This document shows, one piece after another, positions 546-62,469 of a DNA stretch of 64,000 nucleotides. Source of the DNA: Patescibacteria group bacterium (GTDB taxonomy: Bacteria > Patescibacteriota > Patescibacteriia > UBA10025 > JBIOWE01); the NCBI GenBank assembly GCA_044868145.1, contig JBIOWE010000006.1, positions 14,558-78,557 of the forward strand, in the 5' to 3' direction. Positions within the stretch are counted from its first letter, which is position 1. The number at the start of each line of letters is the position of its first letter. The translations under genes were made by a program, and so were the position numbers. A model generated the notes under the pieces. It did no database searches and was not told the DNA's origin. It was given only the letters and a program-made list of their open reading frames with translations.

Positions 546-943
546 GTGGTGGAGATGGCGGGTATTTCACCCGCGTCTAGATTTTCCGTATCAAAACATC
601 TACAAGCGTAGCGCATTTCAAGGTTTCAGGCAACAAGGTCAAAATGTGCAAAAGCCTCGCTACCCAATCCTTCGTTGTTTTCGGACGCGCCGGAAGGAAC
701 AGCGAGCCCTATCCTACTAATTTGACACCGAGGGTTCGGCTAGTAGGAGTCGCCGATCTCGATGGCTGAAGCGTTTTAGGCAACAGCGAGTGAAGGAACC
801 GCAAATGCATTCGCAAATGCTGTCTTCACTTTGTTCACAAATGATTTGGCATTTATGAGATTCTACGTTGGTTTTACGTCGCACCGTAGAGCGGACGGCT
901 TGCCGTTTTGACAAAGATCCTCTATCGATTATTGAGCATCCCC
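546..943 (-). ncRNA. ssrA: tmRNA (ssrA), about 398 nt
   Basis: The minus strand starts GGGGATGCTCAATAATCGATAGAGG. It ends GCGGGTGAAATACCCGC-CATCTCC-A-CCA, i.e. a T-arm-like stem-loop plus a 7-nt acceptor strand complementary to the 5' GGGGATG, a discriminator and CCA. An internal frame ...GCGAATGCATTTGCGGTTCCTTCACTCGCTGTTGCCTAA encodes a plausible tag peptide, ANAFAVPSLAVA*. smpB lies adjacent on the same strand. Confidence 0.6.
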
Positions 944-3937: not shown

Positions 3938-3949
3938 CCACATAAAATT

Positions 3950-4023
3950 GGAGGCGTAGTGCTAGTGGCCCAGCACGGTTGGTTGTGGCCCAACAAACAC
4001 GGGTTCGAATCCCGTCGCCTCTA
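3950..4023 (+). tRNA. tRNA-His (anticodon GTG)
   Basis: Hand-folded cloverleaf. Acceptor GGAGGCG/CGCCTCT with G1-U72; D-stem GTGC/GCAC; anticodon stem GTTGG/CCAAC with loop TTGTGGC (anticodon GTG); T-arm ACGGG-TTCGAAT-CCCGT; discriminator A. It lies immediately upstream of hisS. Confidence 0.8.
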
Positions 4024-4052
4024 ATATTTACTACCAGAGGAGGTGGTACGTA

Positions 4053-49495: not shown

Positions 49496-50395
49496 ATGCG
49501 CAACATTATCACCACCACCTTCCTCACCCTCGACGGCGTCTACCAAGCCCCCGGTGGTCCCGATGAAGACAAGTCGGGCGGCTTTCAGTACGGCGGCTGG
49601 CAATTTGGTAAGTTTCAAGACGAATTAACGGGAAAAATTTTAAGTGGCTGGTTCGCTGCGCCGTTTGAACTTCTCCTCGGCCGAATCACGTATGACATCT
49701 TTGCTGCTTTTTGGCCAACCGCGAAAACTGATCCTGAAGTCGCTGTGCCGTTTAACGCCACAAAGAAATATGTTGTTTCACATGACCTGGGCTTCAAAGC
49801 GGCTTGGAACAACTCCGTTGTTGTGTCCGGAGATGTGGTCACGGAAATCAAAAAGCTGAAAGCGATGGACGGCCCGGATCTGTGGGTGTGGGGGAGTGGC
49901 AACCTGATCCAGACGCTCTTGAAAGCCAACCTGATTGATCGGATGCACATCTGGACACACCCGGTCACGATTGGATCAGGCAAGCGATTGTTTGCCGACC
50001 TGCCTGCGCCGCGGCCGAATATTTTTTACGTATATGTAATACTTTGCGATGACGATTCAATGTATATCGGCCAAACCGAAGATATTCCAAAACGTTGGTT
50101 TGAACATAACGTGGGAAGGGCTGCTGAACACACAAAACGACACAAACCACTTGAAATCATTCACTATGAAGAGTTTATTTCTCGAGAAGCTGCGGTAAAG
50201 CGCGAGCAAGATTTAAAGACAGGGTTTGGCCGAAAATGGCTAAAACACGAGTGGCAAGCCGGCCGGACGCGGCAGGCTGGTGGCACACAACCCGCGTTAT
50301 GGAAACTCGTGGACTCAAAAGTTTCTACCACCGGGGTCATTATTACCACCTACGAATTCAACGGGCCGCTGAAACCGGGGGCGGTGCCGACCTAA
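49496..50395 (+). CDS. RibD_C/dihydrofolate-reductase-like (YwjB family) protein carrying an in-frame GIY-YIG module insertion
   Basis: N-terminal part LTLDGVYQ...LLGRITYDIFAAFWPT...VWGSGNLIQTLLKANLIDRMHIWTHPVTIGSGKRLF, then FYVYVILCDDDSMYIGQTEDIPKRWFEHN (GIY-YIG). The DHFR-like C-terminus resumes at PALWKLVDSKVSTTGVIITTYEF. Confidence 0.6.
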   Translation: MRNIITTTFLTLDGVYQAPGGPDEDKSGGFQYGGWQFGKFQDELTGKILSGWFAAPFELLLGRITYDIFAAFWPTAKTDPEVAVPFNATKKYVVSHDLGFKAAWNNSVVVSGDVVTEIKKLKAMDGPDLWVWGSGNLIQTLLKANLIDRMHIWTHPVTIGSGKRLFADLPAPRPNIFYVYVILCDDDSMYIGQTEDIPKRWFEHNVGRAAEHTKRHKPLEIIHYEEFISREAAVKREQDLKTGFGRKWLKHEWQAGRTRQAGGTQPALWKLVDSKVSTTGVIITTYEFNGPLKPGAVPT

Positions 50396-51294: not shown

Positions 51295-51615
51295 TCCAGA
51301 CGAAAACTGTTAAGACGGAATGCACCAAAAGCCGAGATTATCCTTTGGCAATGCTTGAAGAATCAACAGCTGGGTCATAAATTCCGCCGTCAGTACAGTA
51401 TCGGCGGATATGTTGTTGATTTTTATTGCCCACAGAAGAGATTTGTCATTGAAGTTGACGGGCCAACACATTTTTCTCGGGGCGTACGGGACTATGATGC
51501 AACTCGCCAGCTATTCTTTGAATCGCTTGGCATGAGGGTCTTACGCGTGACGAACGACGATGTGTATGAGAACGTTCGGGGTGTCGTGGAAGCTATTCTA
51601 CGTTTATTGAAGTAA
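51295..51615 (+). CDS. DUF559/Vsr-like endonuclease-domain small protein (non-ATG start or 5'-truncated)
   Basis: RKLLRRNAPKAEIILWQCLKNQQLGHKFRRQYSIGGYVVDFYC...VIEVDG matches the DUF559 N-terminal motif. The ORF track starts at TTG 51355, but the frame is open from 51295 with no ATG. Confidence 0.6.
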   Translation, partial: SRRKLLRRNAPKAEIILWQCLKNQQLGHKFRRQYSIGGYVVDFYCPQKRFVIEVDGPTHFSRGVRDYDATRQLFFESLGMRVLRVTNDDVYENVRGVVEAILRLLK

Positions 51616-51923: not shown

Positions 51924-51989
51924 TCACAAGACTCATTGAAAGTCTCAATGAGTCTTTTTTTTCCTTAAAAAAAAGAGTACAATGAACGT

Positions 51990-53225
51990 ATGATGAAAAA
52001 AATTGTGATCATTGTCAGTATCGTCGTCGTGGCAGGTGGCGCGGTGTATCTTGCGCTCACCAATAACGATTCTCCGATTGTCCAATCCCTCCAAAACGCC
52101 GTTCAGAATAATCAGAACGACAACCAGCAAGATCTCAACAAAGTTTTTAGCCAAGGCAAATGCCAGGGCCAGGACCGCGTGACCTTCACCAGCCCGATGG
52201 TTCGGCCGGAAGATACGGCCTACATTATCCCGCTCGGCCTGATGGTGAAGGGCCATGTGACGCCCATTGACCACCAGTATTATTATCCTAGGAACATGAA
52301 TGCCGGGACAGAGTATCCGGTGTACGCGCCAGCGGACGGCGTGATTGTGGCCGTCGGGCGACACAACCAGCAAGTCGAAAAGCACCTCCAGCAGTTTCAC
52401 TACGATCAGGTCGATGTGGCGATTGAACACTCCTGCCGTAGCTATTCGTTTCTCGGCCTGATGAGCACGCTCGAACCGAGCATCGTGCAGGCGGCCGGCG
52501 GGCTGGAAGAAAATTCAGGAAAAAATGTACGCATCCCGGTCAAGGCCGGTCAAGTCGTCGGCACGGTCGGCGGACACTCACTCGATGTAACGGTCTACGA
52601 TCAGGAGCACACCTTATCCGGCTTCCTCCGGCCGGAGTCCTATCAGACACAAGCCGGCAAGCTCCATATCGTCAATATGTTCGACTACTACGCTGAACCG
52701 GTCAAAAGCCAACTCCTGGCTTTGAACCCCCGCACCATCGAGCCGCGCGGCGGGAAAATCGACTACGACGTTGATGGCAAACTTATCGGCACCTGGTTTA
52801 TCCAAGGCACGAATGGCTACGATGGGGCACAGCGAGATGCATATTGGAGGGGGCATTTGAGTTTTGCGCCGAACGTCCTGGACCCGACGTTCATGATGAT
52901 TTCGATTGGCACATTCAATGGCGAAACGGACGGGTATCAGTTTGGAATCAAGGGCAACGGCCCTGATCCGGCGACAGTCAACATGAGCAGCGGCCTGGTA
53001 AAGTATGAACTGGTTAATCTACAGATTGTCGATGCGAATGGTCAAGGGTTTGGTGGCCCGACAAGCTCCGCCACGGCTATCCACGGGCAACTGCGGAGCG
53101 AGGTCGAAGGCGTGATGCTCGTACAACTGCTCGGAGACCGGCTGCTGAAAGTCGAAACGTTTCCAAGGAAAACCGCGGCCGAGGTTTTTGATTTTACGGC
53201 CAATGCGCAATTATACGAACGCTAA
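51990..53225 (+). CDS. Membrane-anchored protein, paralog family member 1: degenerate LytM/M23-like domain plus conserved C-terminal domain
   Basis: N-terminal TM helix and a Q/N-rich linker. GHVTPIDHQYY...VYAPADGVIVAV...VAIEHS...VKAGQVVGTVGGHSLDVTVYD follows the M23 motif order (HxxxD...GQvIGxvG) but lacks HxH. The C-terminal block is IDYDVDGKLIGTWF...GHLSFAP..DPTF.ISIG...GPDPA...SGLVKY. Confidence 0.5.
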   Translation: MMKKIVIIVSIVVVAGGAVYLALTNNDSPIVQSLQNAVQNNQNDNQQDLNKVFSQGKCQGQDRVTFTSPMVRPEDTAYIIPLGLMVKGHVTPIDHQYYYPRNMNAGTEYPVYAPADGVIVAVGRHNQQVEKHLQQFHYDQVDVAIEHSCRSYSFLGLMSTLEPSIVQAAGGLEENSGKNVRIPVKAGQVVGTVGGHSLDVTVYDQEHTLSGFLRPESYQTQAGKLHIVNMFDYYAEPVKSQLLALNPRTIEPRGGKIDYDVDGKLIGTWFIQGTNGYDGAQRDAYWRGHLSFAPNVLDPTFMMISIGTFNGETDGYQFGIKGNGPDPATVNMSSGLVKYELVNLQIVDANGQGFGGPTSSATAIHGQLRSEVEGVMLVQLLGDRLLKVETFPRKTAAEVFDFTANAQLYER

Positions 53226-53227
53226 GC

Positions 53228-54052
53228 ATGGAATTTTTCAAAAAACATTGGTGGAAATTCGCAGCTGGGCTGTTGATCATCCTCGTCGTCGGGATTTTTG
53301 GTTTGGGACAAGTCAAAAGATACCCAAGCAGTGAAAATATACAAACTCGCTCTACATCAACGGCGCCTAGTCCAAACGCTCCCTACATTACGGCTAATCC
53401 AATTGACCTAAGCCAGATAGAAAAAATTTCAAAATTTCGCAGTTGCGCTGGTCATGATAACTCGGGTCATAATTTCTTTGGAGAAGTCGAGACTGACCGC
53501 TCAATGAAACATTACGTTAAGCCGCTCGCGGCTTTCGATGACGACAAAGCTAGAATCCACTCCCCGTTTGACGGCACCGTGTATTCTGCCGACGGACCGC
53601 ATCCAGAGCTCGGACCCGGCCAGGCCAGAGGCGGATCGCTTGAGCTTATGAGTTCCATGGAGCCACACGCCGTTGTTCTGTTGGGCCATATTACTGCCCT
53701 TGCCGGCTTGAAGAAAGGAGACACCGTGCAATCGGGCCAGCTGCTTGGCTACGCGACTACGAGCGGCGGCAGCGACTTTGATTTGGTACTTCGCGCTATC
53801 AACCAGCCTGGCGCTCAGTCTACTTTCGGCGACACCTTTGATTCGGTGTTCAACCATATGACGCCCCAAGTCTTAGCCGAATATGCCAAGTTTGGCTTGA
53901 CCAAAGACGCCATGTTTTTCAGCAAAGAATTTCGCGATCAACATCCATGTCTGTTTGGAACTGTGGCCGCCGAACCGAACGAGCGCAGCGGCCCACAACC
54001 TGACATCCAAACTTCTCCAGACAATTGGGTCTTTCTTAAGACTCGCACGTAA
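53228..54052 (+). CDS. Membrane-anchored protein, short paralog (degenerate LytM/M23-like domain only)
   Basis: TM helix, then CAGHDNSGHNF...SPFDGTVYSADG...VVLLGHITAL...KKGDTVQSGQLLGYATTSGGSDFDLVL. Confidence 0.45.
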   Translation: MEFFKKHWWKFAAGLLIILVVGIFGLGQVKRYPSSENIQTRSTSTAPSPNAPYITANPIDLSQIEKISKFRSCAGHDNSGHNFFGEVETDRSMKHYVKPLAAFDDDKARIHSPFDGTVYSADGPHPELGPGQARGGSLELMSSMEPHAVVLLGHITALAGLKKGDTVQSGQLLGYATTSGGSDFDLVLRAINQPGAQSTFGDTFDSVFNHMTPQVLAEYAKFGLTKDAMFFSKEFRDQHPCLFGTVAAEPNERSGPQPDIQTSPDNWVFLKTRT

Positions 54053-54068
54053 TGTACAATAATGATGT

Positions 54069-55346
54069 ATGGAATTCCTGCAACTTTTCAAAAAACATTG
54101 GCGGAAAATAGTTAGACTAGTTTTAATCTTGGTCATCATTCTTGTGGGAGCAACTGTTATTTTCTCTCAGCTCAAAAAAACAGGTGAACTGCCACCCGCC
54201 CTTGAGAAATTTGTCACCGGCCGCAACCTAACGGTCGCAGAGCAAGAGGGCAAAAAATATACCAACGGTCGCTGCAGTGGAAATGACGTCAAGCAATTAA
54301 CTCATTCTCCTTTGGCTCCCGAAGATATCACCAATATTCTGCCTTACGGTGGGGTGGTAGGCGCTCACGTTATGCCAATCTCCCACGGCTATATTTGGCC
54401 GGGCAAAATGAACGATCCCCGTGATAAGTACAACGTTTATGCCATGGCCGACAGCACACTTTTTAGTATTTCCAGCCGCTCAGTGAACGTCGATACGGGT
54501 GAAGCGAAGCAGGCAGAATACCAACTACAATTTAGCATCAGCTGCGTGGAGTTTTACTATTACGATCTAATCACTAGCCTCACGCCCGAACTGCAAAAGT
54601 ACCTCGACGAACAACCTAGTCAGAGTCAATTCGGCAATAGTGTTTCCGTCAGCATTCCGATCAAAGGTGGCCAGCTGCTCGGTAAAATCGGCGGCCAGAC
54701 ACTAGATTACGCGGTTTGGGATTTCAACAAAACTTTAACGGGATACATTGTCCCTGAACACTACGAGGAAGACTTTCCCCGCATCCACTTGGTCAGTCCA
54801 TTCGATTATATGAACGATGAGATCAGGCAAACCCTGCTGCCGAAGCTTGCACGCGGCGCTGAACCGATTGAGGGCAAGGTTGACTACGACATTGATGGCA
54901 AACTGATCGGCGGATGGTTCATGGAAGGTTCCGGCAGCTATGGTGGTCTTCATCAAGGCAATGGTCGCTATTGGGCAGGTCATTTGGCCATTATTCCTGA
55001 TTATCATGATCCGACGTTTATGGGTATCTCGATTGGTACCTATATCCCGGAGCAAGAGGCCCAGTTTGCTATCTCGCGCGATGCGCCCGATCCAAGAAAC
55101 ATTGGCGTAGAGTCTGGTTTGGTGAAATATGATTTATATCAGGGCGACCACACCTTAAGTGACGGCGGTATGTGGGATCGTTTTACGCCAGTTAAAGACC
55201 TCAGAGGCAAGACCAACGGGCCGAGCCAGGGCTGTGCGGTGTTTCAGCTGACTGAAGCGCGTAAGCTCAGGGCAGAGTTCTTCCCAAAAAAAGCTTGCGC
55301 ACAAGTAGTCGGATTTACAGTGGCAGCAACGTTCTATGAACGATAA
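54069..55346 (+). CDS. Membrane-anchored protein, paralog family member 3
   Basis: Aligns throughout with 51990-53225 and 59992-61263 (AHVMPISHGYIWP, YAMAD, GGQLLGKIGGQTLDYAVWD, VDYDIDGKLIGGWF, GHLAIIP.YHDPTFMGISIGT). Confidence 0.5.
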   Translation: MEFLQLFKKHWRKIVRLVLILVIILVGATVIFSQLKKTGELPPALEKFVTGRNLTVAEQEGKKYTNGRCSGNDVKQLTHSPLAPEDITNILPYGGVVGAHVMPISHGYIWPGKMNDPRDKYNVYAMADSTLFSISSRSVNVDTGEAKQAEYQLQFSISCVEFYYYDLITSLTPELQKYLDEQPSQSQFGNSVSVSIPIKGGQLLGKIGGQTLDYAVWDFNKTLTGYIVPEHYEEDFPRIHLVSPFDYMNDEIRQTLLPKLARGAEPIEGKVDYDIDGKLIGGWFMEGSGSYGGLHQGNGRYWAGHLAIIPDYHDPTFMGISIGTYIPEQEAQFAISRDAPDPRNIGVESGLVKYDLYQGDHTLSDGGMWDRFTPVKDLRGKTNGPSQGCAVFQLTEARKLRAEFFPKKACAQVVGFTVAATFYER

Positions 55347-56046
55347 TATAAAACAAACAGTTTCTCCAAGGGTAACACCGCGCGTGCCCATGTCCAAGCA
55401 CCGCCTTGAAGCGTTTAGCGACGGTGTGTTTGCGATTGCTATCACCATTCTCGTTCTCAACCTGAAGCTGCCGGAGATCGTCAAAACCGCAAATCTCAAT
55501 CACGACTTGTGGCGCGCGATCGTTGACCAGTGGCCGCGGCTCCTCTCATACGCCATCAGCTTTGGGATCGTCGGGCTCTACTGGGTTGGGCATCACTTGA
55601 TGTTCCACTATATCCGGCACACTGACCGGATGTTTCTGTTTATCAATAATCTCTATTTGATGGTCATCGCATTCATGCCGTTTCCAGCGGCGCTTCTCGG
55701 GCAATACGGAACGACCCAAGCGGCGATCATCGTGTACGCGGCAACGTTGATCGTGGCCGGACAGTTGTTTAATGGCCTGTGGCGTTACGCCACGCGCCAC
55801 CACCGCCTGGTTGATCCGAATCTGTCTGACCGCGTTATTCGTTTAGTCAAGAAGATCATTTCCGTTGCGCCGGTCATTTACCTTGCAGCCATCGGCCTGT
55901 CGTTCATTAATCCGCGACTTAGCCTGATTATGTTTGTCATTACCCCGCTGCTCTACATCGTACCCGGACCAATTGACCGGCTGATGAGCGCGGAAGAAGA
56001 AAACTTACGCTCGAGCGGCAATAACTCGTCACCGCCCAGGGTATAG
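55336..56046 (+). CDS. DUF1211/TMEM175-family membrane protein (putative K+ channel family)
   Basis: RLEAFSDGVFAIAITILVL signature plus a second TM repeat. Confidence 0.7.
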   Translation: MNDNIKQTVSPRVTPRVPMSKHRLEAFSDGVFAIAITILVLNLKLPEIVKTANLNHDLWRAIVDQWPRLLSYAISFGIVGLYWVGHHLMFHYIRHTDRMFLFINNLYLMVIAFMPFPAALLGQYGTTQAAIIVYAATLIVAGQLFNGLWRYATRHHRLVDPNLSDRVIRLVKKIISVAPVIYLAAIGLSFINPRLSLIMFVITPLLYIVPGPIDRLMSAEEENLRSSGNNSSPPRV

Positions 56047-56051
56047 AACTT

Positions 56052-56124
56052 TTGACTTTTTTGCTTTGCTCGCGTACATTGTAAGTAATAAGCCTTTCCC
56101 AATTTCACGGAAGGTTTTTGTTTT
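56052..56124 (+). promoter_or_regulatory. Family F element: conserved promoter plus hairpin/T-tract (copy 1)
   Basis: TTGACT-N18-TACATT, then TAAGCCTTTCCCAATTTCACGGAAGGTTTTTG. Confidence 0.45.
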
Positions 56125-58183: not shown

Positions 58184-58253
58184 TTGACCTTTTCACTTTG
58201 CTCACGTACACTGGAGATAGTAAGCCTTCCCTAATTTTACGGAAGGTTTTTTT
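58184..58253 (+). promoter_or_regulatory. Family F element: conserved promoter plus hairpin/T-tract, immediately 5' of a GIY-YIG ORF (copy 2)
   Basis: TTGACC-N17-TACACT, then TAAGCCTTCCCTAATTTTACGGAAGGTTTTTTT-ATG. The 3' hairpin arm GGAAGG is the only SD-like sequence upstream of the ATG. Confidence 0.5.
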
Positions 58254-58568
58254 ATGCGACGTTATTACGTCTATATCATGACAAATAAAGTTAACACGGT
58301 GCTCTATATCGGGGTTACTTCAAATTTACAGTGGCGTGTATTTGAACACAGGCATAAGCTCACTAAGGGATTTACAGCTCGGTATAATGTGAATAAGCTG
58401 GTGTATTATGAGGGGTATGAATATGTGTGGGATGCAATTAGTAGAGAAAAGCAACTCAAAAACTGGCGACGTCAATGGAAGATTGATTTGATCAATACGT
58501 CTAATCCGCGTCTCAATGACCTGGCCCGTGAATGGTATGAGGGAGATCCTGAATCAAGTTTAGGATGA
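58254..58568 (+). CDS. GIY-YIG nuclease family small protein
   Basis: YYVYIMTNKVNTVLYIGVTSNLQWRVFEH... Confidence 0.7.
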   Translation: MRRYYVYIMTNKVNTVLYIGVTSNLQWRVFEHRHKLTKGFTARYNVNKLVYYEGYEYVWDAISREKQLKNWRRQWKIDLINTSNPRLNDLAREWYEGDPESSLG

Positions 58569-59991: not shown

Positions 59992-61263
59992 ATGAAAAAA
60001 AATATAATCATCGTCAGTCTAGCCGTCGTTATCGTTGGACTCATAGGGTATGTGGTCCTCAGCCAACGCAATACGAGTCCGGCAGGCACGACGAACCAAA
60101 CAACGAATTCGACGAGTAATACGAAGGGCACCGCGAATCAGTCGGATCAGCAGAAGGCCGCTGATCAGGCGGGAAAACAAATCAGCGGCGGACACTGCAC
60201 CGGAACCGACAAACCGAAATTAACGCACCTGCCCATGGACCCGGCAGACTTCGCTTTTATTTTGCCCTACGGATTGATGGTTGGCGGACACGTCACGCCG
60301 GTTGATCACCAATATTTCAGTCCGATTATTTTTGATTCACCGCCGAGCACGTACAACGTCTATGCCATGGCGGATAGTCAGTTGGTTGGCGTGCAAACCC
60401 GTACGCATCAGGGCCAAGGTCAAAATAAAAGTATCATGGTCACCGACTATCACCTCATTTTCAGTGTCAGCTGTCGTTTATTCTACTACTACGACCTCGT
60501 GAACAGTCTGGCGACGGGTTTGGAGGACGCATTCAACGACATGAATAACCATAATGGCGTGCATGTCACCTCTGGCCAACTCATCGGCAAGATTGGCGGC
60601 CAGACGCTCGATTTCGCGGTGTGGGACACCGAGAAACCGCTCACCGGCTTCATAGTACCGGAACACTACGCACGCGAATCGTGGAAAATCTACACGGCTG
60701 ATCCGCTTGACTACTATGCGGACGACATCAAAGCGGCTGCCTTGGCGAAGTATGTACGAACCGCTGAACCCTTGAGTGGCAAGATTGATTACGACATTGA
60801 TGGCAAACTCATCGGTACCTGGTTTAAGCAAGAAGCTAATGGGACAACGACTGGCTACGCCGGCACTGGCGAAAATGACTACTGGACAACGCATCTGTCA
60901 TTCTCCCCATACTTTCTCGACCCTTCTGGTTTTCTCATCTCCATAGGCAATTGGCCGAAGCCGGATGGCGCATCGCAATTCGCGTCAAAAGAGGACGGCC
61001 CGAACCCGGCTGACGTTGACGTGAGCACCGGCTTGGTGAAGTATAACTTGGTTCGGTTCGACGATTACAAAGCGAACGGTCAGCGGTGGGACAACATGAC
61101 TTTTCCCAATTCGCCGATTAGTTTGCATAAGCTCAGTTCTGTTGAAGGATGCATGTTGGCGCAAATGACGGACACCCGGACATTGAAAGCGGAAGCGTTC
61201 AACGGCAAGAATTGCAGCCTAGTGACCGGGTTTACGTCAGCCGCAACCATATATATACGGTAA
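59992..61263 (+). CDS. Membrane-anchored protein, paralog family member 4 (degenerate LytM/M23-like plus C-terminal domain)
   Basis: GHVTPVDHQYFSP, YAMADSQLVGV, GQLIGKIGGQTLDFAVWD, IDYDIDGKLIGTWF, THLSFSPYFLDPSGFLISIGN, DGPNPADVDVSTGLVKYNL. Confidence 0.5.
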   Translation: MKKNIIIVSLAVVIVGLIGYVVLSQRNTSPAGTTNQTTNSTSNTKGTANQSDQQKAADQAGKQISGGHCTGTDKPKLTHLPMDPADFAFILPYGLMVGGHVTPVDHQYFSPIIFDSPPSTYNVYAMADSQLVGVQTRTHQGQGQNKSIMVTDYHLIFSVSCRLFYYYDLVNSLATGLEDAFNDMNNHNGVHVTSGQLIGKIGGQTLDFAVWDTEKPLTGFIVPEHYARESWKIYTADPLDYYADDIKAAALAKYVRTAEPLSGKIDYDIDGKLIGTWFKQEANGTTTGYAGTGENDYWTTHLSFSPYFLDPSGFLISIGNWPKPDGASQFASKEDGPNPADVDVSTGLVKYNLVRFDDYKANGQRWDNMTFPNSPISLHKLSSVEGCMLAQMTDTRTLKAEAFNGKNCSLVTGFTSAATIYIR

Positions 61264-62094: not shown

Positions 62095-62469
62095 ATGAAG
62101 TACAGAACATTTGAGGAATTGCCAATTTGGCAGGAAGCAATTCGTTTGACGCAGGAGATCTATTCCATGTCTGGTCAAAAATCATGGGGTTATGATTATG
62201 GTCTACGAGATCAGATACGCAGGGCGATGGTGTCCGTGAGCGCAAATATTGTTGAAGGATTTGAGAAGAATACTAATAAGGAGTTTATTCGCTATTTACG
62301 AATCGCCAAGGGCTCAATTGGGGAGGTCCGAAATCATTTTTATGTAGCAGAATCTTTGGGATATATTTCGAACAAAGAATTCAACGTAGTGAACCAAGAG
62401 CTGCTCACAGTAGCAAAACAAATTGGTGGATTCATCAATTATCTGCGTAAATTTAGATATCAAGAATGA
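62095..62469 (+). CDS. Four-helix-bundle protein (TIGR02436 / 23S rRNA intervening-sequence protein family)
   Basis: IWQEAIRLTQEIYSMS...DQIRRAMVSVSANIVEGF...EFIRYLRIAKGSIGEVRNHFYVAESLGYIS. Confidence 0.7.
   Translation: MKYRTFEELPIWQEAIRLTQEIYSMSGQKSWGYDYGLRDQIRRAMVSVSANIVEGFEKNTNKEFIRYLRIAKGSIGEVRNHFYVAESLGYISNKEFNVVNQELLTVAKQIGGFINYLRKFRYQE

Follow-up and report, generated by a model that had tools for sequence, protein, structure and literature searches.

Membrane-anchored proteins of Patescibacteria that combine a remodelled M23/LytM-type domain with a predicted C-terminal beta-barrel

Three long genes that resemble one another and one shorter relative lie within 9.3 kb of a 64,000-nucleotide stretch of DNA from a Patescibacteria group bacterium (contig JBIOWE010000006.1, positions 14,558 to 78,557 of the forward strand; hereafter the window). 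An initial annotation described the four products as a single family of membrane-anchored paralogs whose LytM/M23-like domain has lost the HxH motif. The question raised by this locus is what these proteins are, and whether their altered motif denotes a decayed enzyme or a remodelled one. A large share of bacterial diversity belongs to Patescibacteria, which live attached to other cells, and to our knowledge most of their conserved surface proteins are unannotated. A survey listed 106 families enriched in the Candidate Phyla Radiation (CPR), most of them poorly annotated and 76 with a membrane helix (PMC6744442).

The four open reading frames (ORFs) were confirmed, all on the plus strand: W411 (411 amino acids (aa), 51990-53225), the short protein (274 aa, 53228-54052), W425 (425 aa, 54069-55346), and W423 (423 aa, 59992-61263). 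Residues are numbered after W423, which also served for the structure model. W411, W425, and W423 align end to end with 34-40% identity, contain all the motifs quoted in the initial annotation, and are true paralogs. The 274-aa protein, which had been counted as the fourth paralog, is related to them only remotely and only through the N-domain. The long proteins form a new, unannotated branch of the M23 superfamily; they are not filed as M23 peptidases proper because they do not reach the Pfam threshold and have neither the HxH motif nor an equivalent of LytM His260. An M23-superfamily surface protein is familiar; a site that is rewired yet conserved, and a barrel domain welded to it, are new.

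The N-domain and its putative active site

The M23/LytM-like N-domain of W423 comprises residues 66-255 (60187-60756). To search for related folds, W423 was modelled with AlphaFold2 from an alignment of 71 sequences. The full-length model had a predicted local distance difference test score (pLDDT) of 89.2 and a predicted template modeling score (pTM) of 0.83. The best matches in the PDB were the LytM domains of EnvC (8tzl_E, E = 9e-4) and PrgK (8s0u), followed by CbpA (5gt1) and LasA (3it5). Among viral models, the best matches were phage proteins named "Peptidase M23", "Lysin A", and "M23ase beta-sheet core".

Profile-profile comparisons were made with hhalign against a reference alignment (A5), in which LytM and lysostaphin were added to a patescibacterial M23 family that is Pfam-positive; a member of this family adjoins a long gene in locus L002. 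The long family matched this alignment with a probability of 96.0% (E = 4e-9, 137 columns), and D105 was placed on the Asp of HxxxD. The match of the short family was stronger (98%, E = 3e-13). Against the single LytM sequence, the short family reached 87%, the long family only 7%. The short-family profile also matched 5kqb, "Peptidase M23", in the PDB (E = 0.0036). At E <= 0.01, Peptidase_M23 was found in 14 of 52 short-family members (best 2.5e-7) and in 2 of 71 long-family members, and it was the sole recurrent Pfam family.

Because the fold search, the profile-profile comparisons, and the Pfam recurrence all agree, we place the N-domain within the M23 superfamily on sequence and model grounds, despite its failing the curated family threshold. 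The domain assignment in the initial annotation holds, as does the reported absence of HxH, and both the modelled fold and the profile searches bear out the relationship to LytM and M23 domains.

Other searches returned little. A PDB sequence search with the 423-aa protein and the family profile gave chance matches only (a NanoLuc fragment and TraV), and a scan of the window proteins against NCBIfam gave nothing relevant. NCBIfam matches to BamI, cytochrome c550, and SpoIIIAH cover residues 1-80, the anchor and the low-complexity linker, and were rejected as compositional. A crude M23 hidden Markov model (HMM) made from LytM and lysostaphin gave three matches and missed the Pfam-positive neighbor in L002; it was too insensitive.

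M23 enzymes are defined by the H(x)nD and HxH motifs; catalysis also involves an oxyanion Tyr and another His, LytM His260 (PMC9662197). HxH includes the water-activating His and the third zinc ligand, and the His260 position precedes it by about 30 residues. We measured conservation over 202 full-length, diverse members of the long family, in which about 35 positions are conserved at >= 95%. The H(x)nD motif is represented by H100-x4-D105 (99% and 98% conserved, respectively), and it is preceded by a P-Y-G...G-G-H stretch that resembles the PYGQYHGGGAH of LytM. In W423 the motif reads H100-V-T-P-(I/V)-D105-H106-Q-Y108 (60289-60315), a variant of the M23 zinc motif with an extra invariant His and Tyr; these two residues, H106 and Y108, are conserved at 99% each. 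D207, also 99% conserved, is located on a predicted strand (residues 206-212) within the segment T205-L-D207-F-A-V-W-D212 (60604-60627), where position 205 is Thr or Ser, and is a candidate replacement for the HxH strand. We favor D207, rather than H225, as the likely equivalent of the last M23 His. Altogether, H100, D105, H106, Y108, D207, Y226, R256, D266, D268, H301, and R423 are 97-100% conserved.

At the position of LytM His260, the long family has Y167/D168 (about 75% conserved each) in place of the His. Two Cys residues of the N-domain, C69 and C161, are near-invariant and may form a disulfide. W411 possesses the full set of near-invariant site residues and a subtype signature, L167/G168/S205.

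Because the His, Asp, and Tyr residues are so tightly conserved, the putative site is probably a working one that binds metal. The initial annotation had spoken of a pseudo-enzyme or an altered metal site. The alteration of the motif is borne out; the pseudo-enzyme label is doubtful, given the near-invariance of the putative site residues, which suggests that the site was remodelled and did not decay.

Anchor, linker, and predicted C-terminal barrel

Each of the four proteins has a single N-terminal hydrophobic segment behind a basic tail (Kyte-Doolittle 19-residue mean 2.4-3.05), and the Kyte-Doolittle scan revealed no second hydrophobic segment in any of them. In W423 the signal-anchor helix comprises residues 5-23 (60004-60060). 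It is followed by a polar linker at residues 26-65 (60067-60186), which is predicted to be disordered, with pLDDT below 50 at residues 27-47. The transmembrane anchor of W411 likewise occupies residues 5-23 and is followed by a linker rich in Asn and Gln, and W425 shares the architecture of W411. The description of these proteins as membrane-anchored with a low-complexity linker was correct. The linkers and N-termini are variable.

The C-terminal domain of W423 (60805-61260) was modelled as a family-specific eight-strand beta-barrel with conserved G275-x-W277-F278, H301, and terminal Y421-x-R423; the corresponding domains are encoded at 52728-53222 in W411 and at 54849-55343 in W425. A conserved C-terminal domain of about 200 aa that could not be assigned had been reported for the three long proteins. 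It is present in these three and could be assigned to no known family, but its size is closer to 165 aa. The C-domain modelled alone (residues 255-423) had a pLDDT of 87.7 and an eight-strand antiparallel structure, for which the PDB contained no significant match; the best was Tp0751, a lipocalin fold (E = 0.22, template modeling (TM) score 0.39-0.52). The weaker matches below it, to nitrophorin, staphostatin, streptavidin, and a Bacteroides lipocalin, are likewise calycin-type barrels. G275-x-W277 is located on the first strand, and the terminal Arg is invariant; we take this combination to recall the calycin signature.

The segment between the domains, R256...G263-K-I-D266-Y-D268-I-D270-G271 (60757-60804), contains a D-x-D-x-D-G loop (D266, D268), which presumably fits the classic calcium-binding pattern. 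This block was modelled with a pLDDT of about 95 in the full-length protein, versus 50-83 in the isolated C-domain. Since it is modelled confidently only in the full-length protein, the models suggest that the segment packs against the N-domain. Of the 150 representatives that the C-domain profile matched best, all also carry the N-domain except six C-domain-only matches of 163-199 aa, which appear to be fragments, and the C-domain nearly always ends on the last residue of the protein. Because of this constant company and the behavior of the interdomain segment, the N- and C-domains look like one functional unit.

Family history, distribution, and genomic surroundings

The long family is large. 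The family HMM matched the three long proteins with E = 1e-139 to 1e-184 and detected no further copy in the window. In a database clustered at 90% identity, W423 had 998 relatives at E <= 1e-3; none of these had a Pfam domain on record, and all their given names were "hypothetical protein". Their named sources were Nomurabacteria, Kerfeldbacteria, Berkelbacteria, and "Patescibacteria group". With a profile built on the last 165 residues, at least 876 representatives at 50% identity were retrieved, 538 of them at E <= 1e-10. We found the long family described neither in Pfam or NCBIfam nor in the source annotations or the literature that could be searched.

Relatives of the long family are encoded in 201 stretches of species-representative genomes, and 80 of these loci were fetched; the neighborhood counts given below refer to 82-83 loci. 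The family is almost wholly from Patescibacteria, and the fetched loci were overwhelmingly from Saccharibacteria, Berkelbacteria, WS6/Dojkabacteria, WWE3, Woesebacteria, Uhrbacteria, Peribacteria, and unclassified Patescibacteria. A few contigs were labelled as proteobacterial metagenome-assembled genomes or as DPANN archaea, labels that could not be verified. Among the latter, the contigs of L034, L066, and L082 are labelled Woesearchaeota, Nanoarchaeia, and Micrarchaeota, and several short-family relatives are also labelled Micrarchaeota. The domains encoded next to the family genes on the DPANN-labelled contigs (DEAD helicase, MMPL, PAP2, NlpC/P60) did not settle an archaeal origin; the NlpC/P60 gene is the neighbor in L082. 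If these labels are true, the family would be present in archaea without peptidoglycan.

Much more divergent relatives of about 25% identity, matching the N-terminal two-thirds of the profile only, were observed in L028 (17870-19987, minus strand) and L017 (8022-9302, plus strand), and one of the two is again paired with a gene resembling the short family. Because of these relatives, the superfamily is wider than the 876 clusters counted.

We compared each window copy with its orthologs in other genomes. The orthologs are closer (68-73% identity for W423, 64% for W425, and 59% for W411) than the paralogs in the window, and in the list of matches of each copy the other window copies stand no higher than 68th and as low as 234th. 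Subtype-specific residues are common to the window copies and their orthologs, and most related loci carry a single long-family copy. Because each copy has closer orthologs in other genomes, we read the three as old subtypes that coexist in one genome, not as a recent, diverging expansion. Nei-Gojobori estimates of the synonymous distance (dS) among the paralogs were undefined or 2.9, that is, saturated, so the ratio of nonsynonymous to synonymous change (dN/dS) is unusable on them.

The only hint of local exchange is a 29-nucleotide (nt) stretch at the 5' ends of the short gene (53229-53257) and the W425 gene (54079-54107), both on the plus strand, in which 26 of 29 nt are identical. It encodes the cytoplasmic tails FKKHW(W/R)K of two proteins that are otherwise less than 20% identical. 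The stretch may reflect local recombination or a 5' signal common to both genes.

The short protein, likewise a membrane protein, belongs to a family of its own; 164 relatives were found, and a precomputed PF01551 match exists for two of them. It is 19% identical to the long proteins and had no match to the long-family HMM at E <= 10 in an HMM-to-sequence comparison. The two family profiles align in hhalign (95.5%, E = 1.6e-8), and the short-family HMM also matches the N-domain region in about 26 of 150 long-family representatives. Judging from these comparisons, the short protein is only a remote relative of the long N-domain. Its invariant H154 aligns with LytM H260. At the position of the M23 HxH strand it has S-D-F-D185-L, with D185 and no HxH. 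It also has H76 and H95, and H95 is located at the H(x)nD position but without the conserved Asp after it.

A Pfam census of 142 immediate neighbors of long-family genes revealed M23 as the commonest family (6), followed by glyoxalase (5) and DUF1801 (3). An M23-type protein is the only recurring neighbor partner. In about 12 of 83 loci the long gene has a short-family gene as its neighbor, which in L016, L029, L038, and L044 is directly upstream, and one protein (L006/P0019) is a fusion of short and long. Canonical M23 genes adjoin the long gene in L002 and L028, and VanY, M23, or NlpC/P60 genes adjoin it in L002 and L082. Among the longer family members there are fusions with a canonical M23 domain scoring 43 bits, with a pair of SLH repeats, with a beta-lactamase/PBP-type domain, and with a polysaccharide lyase. 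Context and fusions point to the cell envelope.

In L001 (9308-13313, Nomurabacteria), a cluster for copper handling comes after the family gene and comprises an ArsR/YHS regulator, a P-type ATPase, a DsbD/cupredoxin protein, and an HMA protein, and cupredoxin occurs in 2 of the 142 neighbors. A link of the long family to metals is possible and may be coincidence.

In the window, a terminator-like hairpin with a 12-bp stem and a T-run (51928-51956, plus strand) closes the upstream unit 34 nt 5' of the W411 gene. The gap between the W411 gene and the short gene is 2 nt, and the gap between the short gene and the W425 gene is 16 nt. A TMEM175-type potassium-channel gene (55336-56046, plus strand) overlaps the W425 stop by 11 nt and, because of this overlap, is probably co-transcribed with the three-gene cluster. 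W423 is located 4.6 kb downstream of the first three genes, with typA, a GIY-YIG gene, and a DEAD-box helicase gene in between.

One copy of a 68-nt direct repeat with 82% identity (56052-56119 and 58184-58251, plus strand) precedes typA, and the other precedes the GIY-YIG gene. Each copy contains a promoter-like TTGAC(T/C)-17-TACA(T/C)T and a CCTTCC...GGAAGG hairpin. Small genes of selfish-element type occur amid the housekeeping genes: the free-standing GIY-YIG nuclease (58254-58568), a short DUF559/Vsr-like endonuclease (51355-51615), and a 23S-rRNA-intervening-sequence protein (62095-62469), all on the plus strand. A protein with a RibD_C domain at residues 3-170 (49496-50395, plus strand) continues in frame into a GIY-YIG nuclease domain (residues 177-244) and about 55 further residues; it looks like a homing-type nuclease inserted in, or fused to, a host gene. 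A tmRNA gene (547-943, minus strand, 95.5 bits) and tRNA-His(GTG) (3949-4024, plus strand) are also present.

Proposed function and its alternatives

With moderate confidence, we regard the long proteins as surface-anchored, divalent-metal-dependent hydrolases or binders of peptidoglycan-type substrates that sometimes work with an M23-type partner. The uncleaved N-terminal helix would hold the protein on the outer face of the cytoplasmic membrane, and the flexible polar linker would let the rest of it reach into the cell wall. In the divergent N-domain, the part of the metal site formed by H(x)nD would persist, while the HxH half and the His of the LytM His260 type would have been swapped for the conserved H106, Y108, D207, and Y226. 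The C-terminal barrel, locked to the N-domain via the R256...DxDxDG segment, would add the invariant H301 and R423. Such a protein would act, as a divalent-metal-dependent enzyme or metal-dependent binder, on peptide stems or cross-links of peptidoglycan or of a related envelope polymer, and in part of the family an M23-type protein, for example the 274-aa one, may be its partner. Metal binding, catalysis, and the substrate are what we infer here; to these we add the disulfide, the binding of calcium, and joint action with the short protein.

We compared the long family with four known systems. It shares with the M23B endopeptidases (LytM, lysostaphin; PF01551, MEROPS M23) the beta-sheet-core fold, an extracytoplasmic location, and association with other wall enzymes, as well as the order of the motifs PYG...GG-H, H(x)nD, V-Y-A-x-x-D-G, and G-Q-x-I-G-x-x-G and the D-P-x-x-Y tail. 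Unlike these enzymes, the long proteins lack HxH and the His260 equivalent, score below the Pfam threshold, and have H-x4-D instead of H-x3-D, the extra invariant H106, Y108, D207, and Y226, and an obligatory C-terminal barrel. The degenerate LytM factors (EnvC, NlpD, DipM, Csd2, and the LytM domain of PrgK) likewise have a LytM fold and an incomplete canonical metal site, and include the top structural matches, EnvC and PrgK-LytM. However, the putative site of the long family is near-invariant, its phyletic range is different, it has no coiled-coil or LysM modules, and no amidase partner was seen nearby. A possible M23-type partner would be shared with Csd2, as in Csd1-Csd2 (PMC9662197).

The small CPR M23 family named "peptidoglycan DD-metalloendopeptidase family protein" (P0396, beside a long gene in L002) is, like the long family, patescibacterial, and has in common with it an N-terminal anchor, a pre-motif L-P-x(n)-P-(Y/M)-G before the metal motif, and a tail that reads C-P-L-x-Y-F or D-P-L-D-Y-Y. 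In contrast to the long family, it passes Pfam M23, keeps H-x3-D and the last His (Q-L-H), and, at about 215 aa, has no C-terminal barrel. Finally, the calycin and lipocalin-like barrels (Tp0751, nitrophorins, staphostatins) may resemble the C-domain, with its predicted eight-strand antiparallel barrel of similar size, GxW on the first strand, and conserved terminal Arg, and they are its only recurring, though weak, fold matches. The C-domain differs in that no structural or sequence match is significant, in the DxDxDG loop before the barrel, and in its constant fusion to an M23-like domain.

Several results weigh against the proposed function. Against the PF01551 (Peptidase M23) gathering threshold of 28.7 bits, W411 scored 16.7 bits and the short protein 18.5 bits, and W425 and W423 had no match to this model at all. 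Statistically, the fold matches of the W423 model were modest, with E about 1e-3 and TM of 0.2-0.45 over the matched chains. The long family has (T/S)-L-D207-F in place of HxH. In hhalign the last M23 His falls on H225, which is 51% conserved, whereas secondary structure and conservation point to D207. W425 has a Ser at position 105 instead of the Asp, a change common to its closest ortholog, P0269. Clustering of the ORFs within 4 kb by BLAST in 82 loci revealed no conserved operon, with no neighbor family in more than seven loci, and the association with an M23-type neighbor is weak (about 15% of loci).

EnvC and NlpD act on amidases, and Csd2 on Csd1. On this model, the long protein might be a non-catalytic scaffold or regulator of the degenerate LytM type, whose remodelled groove binds another wall enzyme, possibly the adjacent short protein, and activates or positions it. 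We consider this unlikely, although it is the strongest of the alternatives. Degenerate LytM domains, in our reading of the literature, have lost their active-site residues, whereas the His/Asp/His/Asp/Tyr set is 98-99% conserved here across very diverse lineages. Most loci have no M23-type or amidase neighbor, and the Pfam scan detected no coiled-coil or LysM partner domain. On the other side stand the recurrent adjacency to M23-type proteins and the one fusion, and the further loss of D105 in W425. The joint absence of HxH and of the His260 equivalent is also the usual mark of non-catalytic, degenerate domains (PMC9662197), and the two best fold matches, EnvC and PrgK-LytM, are themselves such domains, either regulatory or inactive (PMC9662197, PMC12857230).

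In another reading, the protein serves ligand capture or adhesion during episymbiosis: the ligand of the calycin-like barrel would be small and hydrophobic or come from the host, the M23-like domain would be a binding module, and the target would be the surface of the host cell and not the wall of the organism itself. This reading is improbable in our estimation. The weak C-domain matches are nearly all calycin-type barrels, the likeness of G275-x-W277 and the terminal Arg to the calycin signature would fit, the protein is exposed at the surface on a long linker, and the family is essentially limited to Patescibacteria plus a few DPANN-labelled contigs. However, the labels of these contigs could not be verified, none of the C-domain matches is significant (best E = 0.22, TM about 0.4-0.5), the C-domain never occurs without the M23-like domain, and fusions and neighbors indicate wall polymers rather than lipids. 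Least probable is the view of the initial annotation that these are locally expanded, fast-diversifying surface pseudo-enzymes shaped by interaction with a host or partner. Three copies and a relative in 9.3 kb, the variable linkers and N-termini, and the 29-nt stretch as a hint of local recombination speak for it; the ranking of orthologs in other genomes largely refutes it, and the subtype substitutions common to those orthologs, the single copy at most related loci, and the very high conservation of the core argue in the same direction. With dS saturated, there is no positive evidence for diversifying selection.

The hydrolase-or-binder reading can be extended further than we would readily go. 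In this extension, a groove of the M23 type with rewired zinc ligands (His/Asp plus Asp/His/Tyr) would be joined by H301, R256, D266/D268, and R423 from a calycin-like barrel and a calcium-type loop into a composite active site, with which Patescibacteria, and perhaps DPANN archaea, would cut or harvest the host cell wall at their surface during episymbiosis. We regard this as a long shot.

A large, strongly conserved, surface-exposed, and unannotated family now has a testable structural assignment, a remodelled M23-type fold with a new barrel. If its members are active, they would extend the known chemistry of the M23/LAS-type site and would be candidate enzymes for wall remodelling or for attack on the host wall in ultrasmall bacteria. 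If they are inactive, they would be LytM-type regulators of a new class, in which the groove is conserved.

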